From positions 1 through 10,110 of the IMG/VR virus record IMGVR_UViG_2529293240_000015: 10,110 nucleotides of DNA. One strand, written 5' to 3'. Positions 1-8,309 of the stretch are shown here, one piece after another. The DNA comes from a virus. Lineage: Duplodnaviria > Heunggongvirae > Uroviricota > Caudoviricetes. A model generated the notes under the pieces. That model saw nothing but the letters and a program-made list of their open reading frames with translations. It was not told the origin of the DNA and ran no database searches. Positions within the stretch are counted from its first letter, which is position 1; each line of letters opens with the position of its first letter. Both the position numbers and the translations under genes were made by a program.

Positions 1-39
1 ATGTTTACGCTGGCGGAAACGGGTTAGCGTTTGCCCCAG
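1..39 (-). pseudogene. dpiA: dpiA (citB) response regulator, distal part of the insertion-disrupted gene (partial, continues beyond window start)
   Basis: Reverse complement of 39..1 translates LGQTLTRFRQRKH, continuing in frame the receiver-domain ORF interrupted at 8305 (...YERLG). Matches my recollection of E. coli DpiA (...ERLGQTLTRFRQRK...). Not verified by search. Confidence 0.75.
35..39. repeat. Left copy of 5-bp target-site duplication CCCAG flanking the Mu-like element
   Basis: CCCAG lies immediately outside the left phage end (TG at 40..41) and is repeated identically at 8305..8309 immediately outside the right end (CA at 8303..8304). A 5-bp duplication is the known Mu transposition signature. 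Confidence 0.85.
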
Positions 40-250
40 TGTATTGATTCACTTGAAGTACGAAAAAACCGGGAGAACATTGGATTATTCGGGATCTGAT
101 GGGATTAGATTTGGTGGGGCTTGCAAGCCTGTAGTACAAATTTTAGGCGTTAACCAATGAAACGCGAAAGATAGTAAAAAATTGCTTTTGTTTCATTGAA
201 AAAACGAAAACAAAAACACTATAAATCATTTCAATCATAGCTTCAAAAAA
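40..250 (+). other. Mu-type left end (attL) with transposase-binding repeats (L1-L3 region)
   Basis: Terminal 5'-TG; repeated TGxTTCAYT...CGAAA(A) motifs, e.g. TTGATTCACTTGAAGTACGAAAAAA near 44..68 and TGTTTCATTGAAAAAACGAAAAC near 199..221; matches recalled Mu left-end sequence almost base for base. Extent is approximate. Confidence 0.7.
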
Positions 251-375
251 CGTTCAAAACCGATAACAACCAGGCTGTCACCAAATGACTCATATCACAA
301 ATCAGCTCATGCCGTTTAGGTATGTTACATGTGTGATTATGTGAGGTTAAGTATGTTTTAGCTGGCTCATGGTTG

Positions 376-885
376 TTATACGGCTTTTTTCGCATCTTGT
401 GGTTCCAACAAAGGAGCTACAGGCTCTTCCTGTTTATGAACACCATACATTGACAAAATCTCTTGGCGAGTTTCTGGAGGTAATTTATGCAGCGCCAAAG
501 CTGTTTGTAGTGTTTGGCGATCAATACCCAGCGTTGCCAATAGGGTGTCAACGGAGATGGAGGGGCGTTCTTGCATTAATCCGGAAAGCCCATATTTAGC
601 CATGTTTAGCTCTATCTCTCGGACTTCATTTTCTCCTAGTTTATTGATTAACAGGGAGAACATTTTCAATGTATCAGCATTCATTTCTTCGATAGCAATT
701 TTTTGCATAGCCGGTATTGCCGGGATATATTCAACCCCAGGCCCGCGACGCCCTTCTTGTGAACGCTTCGGCCATCCTTCTTTCTTTGCTCGTTTATGCA
801 CCCCCTGTATTGTCCCAGGCATTCCATCCAGTTCAGTAATTTGTTTGGGTGTCATCCACTGGTTTATCTCATTTGCGCTTTTCAT
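376..885 (-). CDS. c: Mu-like phage repressor c (immunity repressor), 169 aa
   Basis: Divergent from ner, as in Mu. N-terminal motif LDGMPGTIQGVHKRAKKEGWPKRSQEGRRGPGVEY is paralogous to the N-terminus of the transposase in this same window ([33 protein letters not shown]); the repressor and MuA share this DNA-binding domain in Mu. Confidence 0.8.
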   Translation of the reverse strand: MKSANEINQWMTPKQITELDGMPGTIQGVHKRAKKEGWPKRSQEGRRGPGVEYIPAIPAMQKIAIEEMNADTLKMFSLLINKLGENEVREIELNMAKYGLSGLMQERPSISVDTLLATLGIDRQTLQTALALHKLPPETRQEILSMYGVHKQEEPVAPLLEPQDAKKAV

Positions 886-1047
886 AAACTAAGTTTACCA
901 GATTTATCTATATAAAAATCAATGGATTACAAAATAAACCACATCAACTGATATAAATCGATTGGGTTTATTTGGTTTATATGGCAATGTATAAAACAGA
1001 TAATCAAGACGAATTATTTGTTTTGATAACCCTTTATCATACGCAAT
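886..1047. promoter_or_regulatory. c/ner divergent operator and early promoter region (Mu O1-O3, Pe/Pc equivalent) with an IHF consensus match
   Basis: AT-rich 160-bp intergenic region between divergent c and ner; AATCAATGGATTA at 917..929 fits the IHF consensus WATCAANNNNTTR; repeated GGTTTAT motifs at about 975..995. Individual operators not delimited. Confidence 0.5.
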
Positions 1048-1302
1048 ATGGTTGGTGTGCGAAAGATGAGTAACGATTGGCATCGGGCCGACGTGATTGC
1101 GGCCCTCAAAAAAACAGGAACCCCTCTGGCAAAATTGTCCAGACGTTCAGGTTATTCAACCGGGACGCTTGCAAATGCATTAGTCAGGCCATGGCCTAAA
1201 GGTGAACGCATTATTGCTGACGCCTTAAACATGAAACCTGAGGAAATTTGGCCTAGTAGATATCTAAGGGATCACAATGAGAGAGTGGATATCAGCAATT
1301 GA
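1048..1302 (+). CDS. ner: Ner-like DNA-binding transcriptional regulator (Mu Ner / E. coli Nlp family)
   Basis: DWHRADVIAALKK...TLANAL..PWPKGERIIADAL..KPEEIWPSRY matches the Ner/Nlp family signature. True start may be the second ATG at 1066 (MSNDWHR...). Confidence 0.85.
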   Translation: MVGVRKMSNDWHRADVIAALKKTGTPLAKLSRRSGYSTGTLANALVRPWPKGERIIADALNMKPEEIWPSRYLRDHNERVDISN

Positions 1303-2912
1303 ATGCATGGGTTTATCTGGTTTACCTGGTTCATTAATGGGGGGTTCACAAAAGAGCTCAGAGAGAAGGATGGCTCAAGAGAAGAAGAGAAGGAATTAGA
1401 GGGGTTGCTTACGAATACCATATATCTTCTCTTCCTAACATTGCTCGAGCTGAAGTTTTGCTCCAACAAGGAAAATTTAAAACCAGTCAGGGATGTTTTG
1501 AAATCGCCCGCCCCACGCTGGAAGCTCATGATTATGATCGTGAGGCACTATGGAGCAAATGGGATAAAGCCAGCGATTCCCAGCGCAGCCTGGCTGAAAA
1601 ATGGTTGCCCTCAATTCAGGCCACAGACGAAATGCTGAACCAGGGGATTTCAACGAAAACGGCTTTTGCGACCGTTGCAGGGCATTACCAGGTCAGCGCA
1701 TCCACTTTGCGGGACAAGTATTACCAGGTACAGAAGTTTGCGAAGCCTGACTGGGCGGCTGCACTTGTTGATGGACGTGGAGCATCCCGTCGCAATGTTC
1801 ACAAAAGTGAATTTGACAAGGATGCCTGGCAGTTTCTGATTGCAGATTATCTGCGACCGGAAAAACCCGCCTTCCGCAAATGTTATGAGCGTCTGGAACT
1901 GGCAGCCCGCGAGCATGGCTGGAGTATTCCCTCCCGTGCCACGGCCTTTCGCCGGATTCAGCAACTGGACGAGGCAATGGTTGTTGCCTGTCGTGAAGGT
2001 GAACATGCACTGATGCATCTGATACCGGCACAGCAGCGAACTGTGGAACACCTGGACGCCATGCAGTGGATCAACGGCGACGGTTATCTGCATAACGTCT
2101 TTGTACGCTGGTTTAACGGTGATGTGATCCGTCCGAAAACATGGTTCTGGCAGGATGTGAAAACCCGAAAAATTCTGGGCTGGCGCTGCGATGTGAGCGA
2201 GAACATTGATTCAATTCGCCTCTCGTTCATGGATGTTGTGACTCGCTACAGTATCCCGGAGGATTTTCACATCACCATTGATAACACCCGTGGTGCTGCG
2301 AATAAATGGCTGACGGGAGGCGCGCCCAATCGCTACCGCTTTAAGGTAAAAGAGGACGATCCAAAAGGACTGTTTTTACTGATGGGTGCGAAAATGCACT
2401 GGACAAGCGTTGTTGCCGGTAAAGGCTGGGGCCAGGCAAAACCTGTTGAACGTGCTTTCGGTGTTGGTGGGCTTGAGGAATACGTTGATAAGCATCCGGC
2501 ACTGGCTGGCGCATATACGGGGCCAAATCCGCAGGCAAAACCTGATAACTATGGCGACCGCGCTGTTGATGCAGAGCTGTTTCTGAAAACCCTTGCCGAA
2601 GGTGTGGCGATGTTCAATGCCAGAACAGGCCGTGAAACAGAAATGTGCGGGGGCAAACTCTCGTTTGATGATGTTTTCGAGCGTGAATACGCCAGAACGA
2701 TTGTGCGTAAGCCAACCGAAGAACAAAAACGGATGCTGTTACTGCCTGCCGAGGCAGTGAACGTTTCACGCAAAGGCGAGTTTACGCTTAAAGTTGGCGG
2801 CTCCCTTAAAGGCGCGAAAAACGTTTATTACAACATGGCATTAATGAATGCCGGAGTGAAAAAAGTTGTGGTCAGATTTGATCCACAGCAGTTACACAGC
2901 ACGGTTTATTGA
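1277..2912 (+). pseudogene. A: Mu-like transposase A, pseudogene: +1 frameshift in G6 run at 1339..1344 and C-terminal truncation by IS600 at 2910
   Basis: ATG at 1277 gives [23 protein letters not shown] (cf. Mu MELWVSPKECANLPGLPKTSAGV); after GGGGGG the homologous frame shifts by one base ([10 protein letters not shown]...[27 protein letters not shown]...), continuing through the DDE core ([19 protein letters not shown]) to ...QQLHSTVY, where the TGA stop is supplied by the IS600 terminus. Mu A has about 100 further C-terminal residues (CYTLDGRF...) that are absent. Confidence 0.9.
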
Positions 2913-7261: not shown

Positions 7262-7354
7262 ATCGATCTGTATTACCGATCGATTATGTCCCGATAACCA
7301 CACCCGACTGATGAGATTTTTTAAGATAACGGCGAATTGATGCAAGGAGGTGAA
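7247..7354 (+). promoter_or_regulatory. mom operon regulatory region: three GATC (Dam) sites including an 8-bp inverted repeat, upstream of com
   Basis: GATC at 7247..7250, 7265..7268 and 7278..7281; AATCGATC (7261..7268) and GATCGATT (7278..7285) form an inverted repeat. In Mu this cluster is the Dam-methylation-sensitive OxyR-binding region of Pmom. GGAGG Shine-Dalgarno at 7346..7350. Confidence 0.65.
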
Positions 7355-7543
7355 ATGAAATCAATTCGCTGTAAGAACTGCAACAAACTGTTATTTAAAG
7401 CGGATTCCTTTGATCACATTGAAATCAGGTGTCCGCGTTGCAAACGTCACATCATAATGCTGAATGCCTGCGAGCATCCCACGGAGAAACATTGTGGGAA
7501 AAGAGAAGAAATCACGCATTCTGACGAAACCGTGCGTTATTGA
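7355..7543 (+). CDS. com: Com, zinc-finger translational activator of mom (62 aa)
   Basis: [61 protein letters not shown]; a Cys4 protein essentially identical to my recollection of Mu Com. Start chosen at the ATG preceded by GGAGG rather than the track ORF start at 7337. Confidence 0.85.
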
Positions 7544-8189
7544 GTATGAAGGCCAGATTGTTGGCTATGGTTCAAAGGAGCTGCGCGTTGAAACCATATC
7601 CTGCTGGCTGGCCCGCACAATCATTCAGACAAAGCACTATTCCCGCCGTTTTGTGAATAACTCTTACCTTCACCTGGGAGTATTCAGCGGGCGTGATCTG
7701 GTTGGCGTTCTCCAGTGGGGATATGCCCTTAACCCCAACTCAGGTCGTCGTGTCGTGCTTGAAACGGATAACCGGGGCTATATGGAGTTGAATCGCATGT
7801 GGCTACACGACGACATGCCCCGCAACTCTGAATCACGGGCCATCAGCTACGCGCTGAAAGTTATCAGATTACTGTATCCGTCAGTGGAGTGGGTTCAGTC
7901 CTTTGCTGACGAACGCTGCGGACTCGCAGGCGTTGTGTATCAGGCGTCGAATTTTGATTTTATTGGCAGCCATGAAAGCACGTTCTACGAGCTGGATGGT
8001 GAGTGGTATCACGAGATAACGATGAACGCGATTAAGCGCGGAGGGCAACGAGGCGAGTATTTGCGAGCTAATAAGGAGCGTGCCGTGGTGCACAAATTTA
8101 ATCAGTATCGCTACATCAGATTCCTGAACAAGCGAGCAAGGAAGCGGCTAAATACCAAACTATTCAAGGTTCAGCCATACCCTAAGTGA
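7464..8189 (+). CDS. mom: Mom DNA-modification protein (acetyltransferase-like; adenine modification that protects phage DNA from restriction)
   Basis: Overlaps the 3' end of com in a different frame, as in Mu; the last Mu gene before attR. The true start may be the GTG at 7494 (231 aa) rather than the ATG at 7464. Confidence 0.8.
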
Positions 8190-8199
8190 TCCCCATGTA

Positions 8200-8304
8200 A
8201 TGAATAAAAAGCGGTAATTAATACTGCTGTTTCATTTGAAGCGCGAAAGCTAAAGTTTTCGCATTTATCGTGAAACGCTTTCGCGTTTTTCGTGCGCCGC
8301 TTCA
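8200..8304 (+). other. Mu-type right end (attR) with transposase-binding repeats
   Basis: ...GAAGCGCGAAAGCTAAAGTTTTCGCATTTATCGTGAAACGCTTTCGCGTTTTTCGTGCGCCGCTTCA ending at 8304 matches the recalled Mu right end; terminal CA. Extent is approximate. Confidence 0.75.
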
Positions 8305-8309
8305 CCCAG
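8305..8309. repeat. Right copy of 5-bp target-site duplication CCCAG
   Basis: Identical to 35..39; abuts the phage right end. Confidence 0.85.

Follow-up and report, generated by a model that had tools for sequence, protein, structure and literature searches.

A Mu-type prophage remnant in dpiA, with an intact target duplication and continuing internal decay among Shigella flexneri assemblies

How did 8.3 kb of Mu-like phage DNA come to lie inside dpiA (citB), and did it arrive whole or already reduced? The window analysed here, a stretch of 10,110 nucleotides, carries such an element between two parts of that gene and is 99.7-99.9% identical to assemblies of Shigella flexneri, a near-identity that points to S. 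flexneri as its organism. With a probability of about 0.93, we read the locus as the outcome of one Mu-type transposition of a complete phage into dpiA and of its later internal decay in place; that the prophage was full-length at insertion is what parsimony suggests. Our search of the literature found no report that places a Mu-type prophage in the dpiA (citB) gene of Shigella.

The pentamer CCCAG stands at 35-39 and again at 8305-8309; the bases outside both copies mismatch, so that the repeat is exactly 5 bp, and the element enclosed spans 40-8304 (8,265 bp). Its termini are of Mu type, beginning TGTATTGATTCAC… at 40 (in longer form, TGTATTGATTCACTTGAAGTACG) and ending …GCGCCGCTTCA at 8304 (in longer form, CGTGCGCCGCTTCA). 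When positions 1-39 are joined to 8310-8648, omitting the element and one CCCAG, a single open frame results (...IAYERLGQTLTRFRQRKH), and the joined flanks are identical, ungapped, over 378/378 nt to dpiA/dpiB of many E. coli genomes. The site is uninterrupted in 5,417 of 5,426 complete E. coli genomes, and the reference dpiA has one CCCAG on that strand, at nt 340-344. Present on both sides of the element and once in the empty site, the pentamer fits the Mu target consensus CYSRG and belongs to the set of eight CYSRG pentamers preferred by MuA, about 7-fold in vivo (PMC7350765). A sequence-only reading had proposed a Mu-type prophage in dpiA with both termini present, flanks joining into one continuous frame, and a size of 8.3 kb against about 37 kb for Mu, all of which holds; its caveat, that the reference gene might already contain two spaced copies of the pentamer, falls away with the single copy found. 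That reading also described the duplication as intact despite massive decay. Intact it is, but its survival is unsurprising, because all the lesions lie inside the element and spare its ends.

Both ends are nearly intact and retain most of their MuA-binding sites. On the left, 40-484 is 91% identical to the corresponding end of Mu (Mu 1-447), and matches to the site consensus RAARYRCGAAAR occur at 55-66 and 159-170, in L1 and L2; L3 has one substitution and a 1-nt deletion. On the right, Mu and SfMu share the final 80 nt without a difference, two further sites match the same consensus, and the element as a whole has the 5'-TG...CA-3' boundaries of the Mu family. The 5' frame of dpiA runs into this phage end as far as 8265, creating a chimeric ORF of 127 aa; the exact chimeric DpiA' is encoded on 699 contigs, all named Shigella flexneri, and full-length DpiA is present in other Shigella. 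The features of the window are collected in Table 1.

Table 1. Features of the dpiA locus and its prophage remnant (window coordinates)
Feature	Coordinates	Strand	Remarks
dpiA, 3' portion, continuing off the window	1..39	-	35-39 CCCAG is the left duplication copy; joined seamlessly to 8310 onward gives E. coli dpiA
Mu-type left end (attL)	40..260	+	MuA-binding sites L1 ~45-66, L2 ~150-170, L3 ~195-216
c repressor, open, 169 aa	376..885	-	Pfam HTH_Tnp_Mu_1
c-ner intergenic region	886..1065		Lies between c and ner; no DNA match to Mu, D108 or SfMu
ner, open, 78 aa	1066..1302	+	84 aa from an upstream ATG at 1048; Pfam HTH_35
Transposase A remnant	1277..2912	+	Pfam HTH_Tnp_Mu_1/2, DDE_2, Mu-transpos_C
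Complete IS600 (IS3 family)	2910..4174	+	Open orfA 2974-3276, orfB 3312-4130; domains HTH_Tnp_1, rve
Tail-fibre gene, C-terminal 237 codons (Mu S'-type, SfMu gp49-type)	4175..4890	+	97% aa identity to SfMu gp49, 95% to Mu S'
Tail-fibre assembly gene (Mu U'-type), open	4893..5426	+	97% to SfMu gp50, 95% to Mu U'; Pfam Caudo_TAP
Alternative tail-fibre assembly gene (Mu U-type), open	5455..5982	-	93% to Mu U and to SfMu gp51
Alternative tail-fibre variable part (SfMu gp52-type), open	5984..6970	-	93% to SfMu gp52, 67% to Mu S
Right gix remnant	6995..7010	+	Outer half lost by an 11-bp deletion (relative to Mu, SfMu)
gin remnant, 65 aa	7064..7261	+	In-frame internal deletion of 384 bp (alignment to Mu, SfMu gin)
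com, open, 62 aa	7355..7543	+	61/62 residues identical to Mu Com
mom, open	7464..8189	+	239/241 residues identical to Mu Mom; Pfam Mom 5.9e-75
Mu-type right end (attR) with MuA-binding sites	8190..8304	+	Consensus matches 8238-8249, 8278-8289
dpiA, 5' portion, codons 1-115	8305..8648	-	8305-8309 CCCAG is the right duplication copy
dpiB, sensor kinase	8617..10110	-	Open over 497 visible codons, runs off the window; six aa differences from the E. coli reference

The D108 part of the earlier label fails for the immunity region, which is neither that of Mu nor that of D108. The c product is 28% (tblastn) or 33% (local alignment) identical to that of D108, 35-40% to that of Mu and about 35% to that of SfMu; its best match in a collection of 50,697 phage records reaches 36%, and its nearest relative, at 85%, is encoded by a prophage of E. 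coli UMNF18. The ner product is 99% identical to its UMNF18 counterpart and 57-68% identical to those of Mu, D108 and SfMu, and 397-1445 has no DNA match to D108. Immunity of D108 or SfMu type was rejected on these c values together with a ner identity of 57%. By sequence, c and ner appear to constitute a distinct Mu-family immunity type, recorded here and matched in none of the 50,697 phage records searched. The interval between them, which by its position in Mu is a putative operator and early-promoter region, has a 9-bp length polymorphism between lineages (an indel relative to loci L008 and L009).

Downstream, A is 97-98% identical in nucleotides to Mu, SfMu and D108 over 1446-2911, with DDE_2 detected at 1e-135 and the Mu-transpos_C domain cut at profile position 50/61. 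A MuA-type DDE transposase is thus present, but as a pseudogene, frameshifted and truncated by IS600 after codon ~545 of 663; the +1 frameshift lies in a run of G at 1339-1344 (six here versus five in L006-L009) and is private to the window. IS600 elements are about 1.26 kb long, with TG...CA ends, imperfect inverted repeats, orfA and orfB. The present copy agrees in size, ends and reading frames, and from end to end it matches, at 99.9% identity, copies annotated as "IS3-like element IS600 family transposase". It stands exactly at the junction where ~29.7 kb is missing, from A codon ~545 into the tail-fibre gene S: SfMu coordinates 2903-32617 are absent and the sequence resumes at SfMu 32618. 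B and every early, middle, lysis, head and tail gene are lost with this interval, as is the left gix site, so that what survives is a remnant lacking the gene complement of a functional prophage. The copy is flanked by TAT and AAC, without a 3-bp duplication, as expected if it marks a deletion junction and not a simple insertion. Adjacent deletion by one copy or recombination between two may have produced the junction, the sequence fitting either.

Further right, the tail-fibre gene abutting IS600 has lost its N-terminal ~250 codons, and the gin product matches Pfam Resolvase over its N-terminal 56 residues only. No complete gix site occurs within the window, and the G segment is fixed because gin carries its internal deletion, the left gix is deleted and the right gix is halved. 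The orientation in which it is held is that named G(-) in Mu and is the same as in the SfMu reference.

Comparison with known phages separates the two sides of the element. SfMu (NC_027382), a phage of the same host species, comes closest in the G segment, gin, com and mom, with 94-96% nucleotide identity across the G segment, the 5' part of gin, com, mom and attR, and its tail-fibre and assembly proteins are 93-97% identical, but it differs in c and ner, and its attL is 82% identical over 231 nt only. Mu (NC_000929) shares the terminal sequences, the 5-bp CYSRG duplication, A (98% nt), Mom (99% aa) and the gene order c-ner-A...S-U-U'-S'-gin-com-mom, and differs in c and in possessing the ~29.7 kb missing from the remnant. 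The Mu-like prophage of UMNF18 (NZ_AGTD01000001, 3,086,972 onward) has the same immunity type and is 92% identical in nucleotides over window positions 36-2911, but its A and B are full-length (the first ~4.3 kb were compared) and it occupies another gene, next to yphB. UMNF18 is the only one of the 5,426 complete E. coli genomes to match at least 80% of window positions 1-1300, c and ner included. The best E. coli match to the left 1.3 kb is a different prophage, at 87%, and none of the 5,426 genomes has a match spanning the dpiA/phage junction; we found no genome with an intact parental prophage in dpiA. "Cryptic SfMu" remnants have been reported in S. flexneri (Jakhetia and Verma 2015, PMC4406740); those scored there by PCR carried the mor-lysozyme region, which the dpiA remnant lacks, and no dpiA insertion was mapped for them.

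The same junctions recur in many S. flexneri assemblies, some with further IS1 or IS600 decay. The right junction, the gin deletion and the gix deletion are common to seven independent assemblies; the left junction is also present in five of these (L001, L002, L005-L007) and in L008 and L009. Divergence among the loci is about 0.1-0.3%. Additional lesions comprise IS1 at ~267-278, IS600-flanking deletions of 313-2909 and 4175-4435, IS1 at ~6219-6227, and IS1 at 6665 with rearrangement. L001, L002 and L005 lack c, ner and the truncated A entirely, and in L003 and L004 other sequence replaces all that lies left of 6665; these genes are thus dispensable.

Was the element already reduced when it reached dpiA, a natural mini-Mu moved in trans by the functions of a helper Mu-like phage? 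The intact ends and retained MuA-binding sites make this mechanistically possible, but one insertion site is seen, with the same dpiA junction in every locus recovered; IS600 stands at the deletion junction, and the same type of element explains the further stepwise deletions in sister lineages; and decay is visibly ongoing in place. We therefore regard such an entry as very unlikely. Next to no credence attaches to the idea that the two CCCAG copies arose by chance or through misassembly, the phage ends having separate origins or having been brought together when two prophages recombined. A given 5-mer does match by chance once in 1,024, and the element is a mosaic, UMNF18-like on the left and SfMu-like on the right; yet the perfect restoration of dpiA and the one reference copy at exactly the duplicated position rule out a chance repeat, the junctions recur in independent complete chromosomes, and, had prophages at two loci recombined, the product would not be flanked by both halves of a single gene and by a duplication.

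A further possibility is that the remnant persists through some use to its host, whether by immunity that the c repressor would confer against superinfecting Mu-like phages of its own immunity type, by Com/Mom modification against restriction or by an effect of the receiver-only DpiA' on DpiB signalling. Open frames remain for c, ner, com and mom, Mom is nearly unchanged from that of Mu, and the c and ner proteins each occur in exactly this form on at least 1,000 contigs and Mom on 877. S. flexneri is, however, young and nearly clonal, so that open frames are expected without selection; several loci have dispensed with the left part altogether; and transcription of mom in Mu requires the late activator C, whose gene lies in the deleted interval. 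A host benefit accordingly seems to us unlikely. Marginally more so is the view, prompted by the nearly intact ends and the open repressor of unmatched immunity type, that the remnant is a natural mini-Mu mobilisable by a superinfecting Mu-like phage, or a domesticated immunity module, with or without Com/Mom anti-restriction, kept for protection against phage.

Under the preferred reading of one insertion and decay in place, a complete Mu-family temperate phage, with SfMu-like late genes and a distinct c/ner region, would have integrated once, by MuA catalysis, at codons 114-115 of dpiA in an ancestor of S. flexneri, duplicating CCCAG. An IS600-associated deletion would then have taken out about 29.7 kb between A codon ~545 and the middle of S; the gin (384-bp, in-frame) and right gix (11-bp) deletions would have killed the G-inversion system; and the A frameshift would have been gained in the lineage of the window, leaving a remnant unable to move by itself or to make particles. 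The insertion splits dpiA between its receiver and DNA-binding domains, and activation of citrate-fermentation genes by DpiB-DpiA is therefore expected to be lost, the predicted phenotype being a failure to induce citrate lyase. This supplies a sequence-level reason for a dead dpiA in S. flexneri and fits a general loss of anaerobic citrate use. With its one insertion and ordered IS-mediated lesions, the locus offers a clean and datable descent marker, potentially of use in ordering S. flexneri lineages. The element is real and cleanly documented, yet as a case of prophage decay and gene loss in Shigella it is ordinary, and it leaves views of Mu transposition, prophage decay and Shigella reductive evolution unchanged.

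Some further observations concern the window at large. Its left end and immunity region are A+T-rich, base composition otherwise giving no informative boundary; a promoter and terminator scan of 1-1400 returned weak consensus matches only, near shuffle expectation, and no known RNA family was found in the window at Rfam gathering scores. Cryptic Mu-family prophages with a gin-family invertase are said to occur elsewhere in Shigella: Tominaga reportedly described in 1997 (Microbiology 143:2057, cited in PMC8987985) a pinD gene on a defective Mu prophage of Shigella dysenteriae, and Tominaga and colleagues in 1991 (J Bacteriol) a gin-like, defective pinF of S. flexneri. The pinF defect agrees with the gin deletion seen here, and that pinF is the present gin remnant should be read as a lead, short of a finding. 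The annotated E. coli locus has the order dcuC-dpiA-dpiB-citC, and the same neighbours flank L001-L007; some assemblies also carry broken copies of the neighbouring dpiB, citT and citG.

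The element under study, 8,265 bp long (40-8304), lies between two copies of CCCAG at 35-39 and 8305-8309, as the sequence-only reading had reported for a Mu-type prophage inserted in dpiA. The bases adjoining the two copies differ both upstream (TAGCGTTTGC versus CGCCGCTTCA) and downstream (TGTATTGATT versus CCGTTCATAG), so that the repeat is exactly 5 bp. CCCAG is one of the eight pentamers of the Mu target consensus CYSRG, with a preference of about 7-fold in vivo (PMC7350765). When 1-39 is joined to 8310-8648, one open frame results (...IAYERLGQTLTRFRQRKH), and the joined 378 nt align ungapped and with 100% identity to dpiA/dpiB of many E. 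coli, confirming the continuous gene predicted from the flanks. A survey for the empty site, also proposed in that reading, found it uninterrupted in 5,417 of 5,426 complete E. coli genomes. Within the annotated E. coli locus (dcuC-dpiA-dpiB-citC), the reference dpiA carries a single CCCAG on the strand concerned (nt 340-344), in codons 114-115 between the receiver and DNA-binding domains; with this single copy and the continuous frame, the possibility raised initially, that two spaced copies in the reference gene might mimic a duplication, falls away.

Both phage termini are recognizable. The element begins with TGTATTGATTCACTTGAAGTACG and ends with CGTGCGCCGCTTCA; its final 80 nt match the right ends of Mu (NC_000929) and SfMu (NC_027382) without a single difference, and 40-484 has 91% identity to the Mu left end. 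On the left, the MuA end-binding consensus has matches at 55-66 and 159-170, and a third site bears one substitution and a 1-nt deletion; the right end has matches at 8238-8249 and 8278-8289. Relative to two other assembly loci with the same insertion (L008 and L009), attL here lacks one A at about 206. The duplication, the phage ends and the empty site together establish one MuA-type transposition into dpiA, followed by internal deletions, the largest of which is marked by IS600. The prophage would have been complete at the time of integration.

Features of the element, assigned by comparison with Mu, SfMu, D108, PhiR68_1 and the E. coli UMNF18 prophage, and by Pfam
Feature	Position	Strand	State or similarity
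attL	40-260		nearly intact
c repressor, 169 aa	376-885	-	open
ner	1066-1302		open
transposase A	1277-2912	+	pseudogene; from 1446 on 97-98% nt identity to Mu, SfMu, D108
IS600	2910-4174		complete; 99.9% identity to annotated copies
tail-fibre gene, C-terminal 237 codons	4175-4890		97% to SfMu gp49, 95% to Mu S'
assembly gene, Mu U'-type	4893-5426
assembly gene, Mu U-type	5455-5982	-
alternative fibre part, 328 aa	5984-6970	-	intact; 93% to SfMu gp52
gin remnant, 65 aa	7064-7261		internal deletion
com	7355-7543		open; 61/62 residues as in Mu
mom	7464-8189		open; 239/241 residues as in Mu
attR	8190-8304		nearly intact

The missing interval, about 29.7 kb, corresponds to SfMu coordinates 2903-32617 and removes B together with all early, middle, lysis, head and tail genes. 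IS600 lies exactly at the junction with unmatched flanks (TAT left, AAC right; no 3-bp duplication), and therefore marks a deletion rather than a simple insertion; the loss would have arisen either by IS600-IS600 recombination or by IS600-promoted adjacent deletion, the sequence fitting both. Transposase A stops after codon ~545 of 663, the IS end providing the stop codon; given the established domain structure of MuA, the truncation takes part of domain II-beta and the whole of domain III, so that no active transposase is possible. Near its start A is also frameshifted by six Gs at 1339-1344, where L006-L009 have five, the sixth being private to the window relative to these four assemblies. 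In gin, an in-frame 384-bp deletion fuses the first ~55 residues to the last ten. The left gix site (SfMu 32366-32391) falls within the large deletion and the right has lost its outer half to an 11-bp deletion; with no complete gix site in the window, the invertible G segment is locked in the same orientation as in the SfMu reference, G(-) by Mu nomenclature.

The label "Mu/D108-like" proved apt at the level of the family. It does not hold in the immunity region, where about 485-1445 matches none of Mu, D108 and SfMu at the DNA level. By local alignment, c shares 33-40% identity with the repressors of Mu, D108, SfMu and PhiR68_1; tblastn against 50,697 phage records gave a best identity of 36% (D108 c, 28%). 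Identities of ner to its counterparts in the same four phages are 54-68%. Only the UMNF18 prophage (NZ_AGTD01000001 from 3,086,972) emerged as a close relative, with 85% identity in c, 99% in ner, and 92% at the nucleotide level over 36-2911. The parent phage was thus a mosaic that combined an unsampled immunity type with SfMu-like late genes. The start of A belongs to the same divergent block, DNA matches to Mu, SfMu and D108 beginning only at 1446. A 54-nt inverted repeat, 74% complementary, links 752-805 (c, minus strand) and 1340-1393 (A, plus strand); its arms fall within the N-terminal DNA-binding domains of c and A. Both domains match Pfam HTH_Tnp_Mu_1, and hence a homologous domain is common to the two proteins. 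At 958-985, in the c-ner intergenic region, there is a 9-bp length polymorphism between the window and L008/L009, within short repeats of the GGTTTAT type.

Cryptic Mu-family prophages are already known in Shigella. A defective gin-like gene, pinF, was reportedly cloned from S. flexneri in 1991. SfMu and "remnants" were detected, unmapped, in several S. flexneri serotypes by PCR and Southern blots (PMC4406740), and pinD of S. dysenteriae has been explained by a defective Mu prophage, according to the citation of Tominaga 1997 in PMC8987985. We found no paper placing a Mu-family remnant in dpiA. The element is an ordinary, well-preserved case of known prophage decay, slightly new only in its exact insertion site, lesion catalogue and unsampled immunity type.

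At the right junction, truncated dpiA runs 12 codons into the phage end (...YERLGEAAHEKRESVSR), producing a chimeric ORF of 127 aa (8265-8648, minus strand). This product occurs on 699 contigs, all with the source name Shigella flexneri, and the index of the assembly collection lists it in 780 blocks; full-length DpiA is on record for S. boydii and other Shigella. Public names for the chimera, "two-component response regulator DpiA" or "response regulator", carry no fragment flag. Seven loci were compared (L001-L007), several of them from complete chromosomes, and all seven share the right junction and the gin and gix deletions, with further decay at different stages. L006 and L007 carry an additional IS1 at ~267-278; in L001, L002 and L005, 313-2909 and 4175-4435 are gone from the two sides of the same IS600, and a newly gained IS1 at ~6219-6227 splits the alternative tail-fibre ORF; in L003 and L004 the element breaks off at an IS1 at 6665, with unrelated DNA beyond. 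When species-representative genomes were scanned by pattern, the left junction turned up in S. flexneri SFBU1023 and in a genome titled E. coli ECMA0423. SFBU1023 also has the same A/IS600 junction. Among complete E. coli RefSeq genomes, none had a match spanning the dpiA/phage junction. Overall, these loci represent a single insertion, vertically inherited, and erosion continues through IS1 and IS600. The exact alternative tail-fibre sequence of the window is present on only 19 contigs, shorter forms (~240-250 aa, mostly labelled partial) being commoner (e.g., 187 contigs); given this rarity and the IS1 interruptions in L001, L002 and L005, the window seems to represent a minority lineage less eroded by IS1. 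The ECMA0423 locus (L008) lies on CP178302.1, a chromosome of 4.44 Mb with the title "Escherichia coli strain ECMA0423"; judging by this size and the junction, the strain may belong to Shigella or to an enteroinvasive lineage under an E. coli name.

Open c, com and mom frames and intact ends could be taken to mean that some function persists, for example immunity to superinfection, or mobilisation in trans. We consider this very improbable: the lineages of L001, L002 and L005 have lost c, ner and the truncated A outright, and the youth of S. flexneri as a species further weakens the argument. For its part, mom is probably silent, because its activator gene C lay within the deleted interval.

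The split dpiA would no longer activate the citrate-lyase genes. In the window, all 497 visible codons of dpiB are open. Elsewhere, L003, L006 and L007 have a split dpiB; citT is also split in L003, L005 has a split citG, and L007 carries an IS1 between citF and citE. Given such broken neighbours in some S. flexneri assemblies, the whole citrate locus appears to be decaying.
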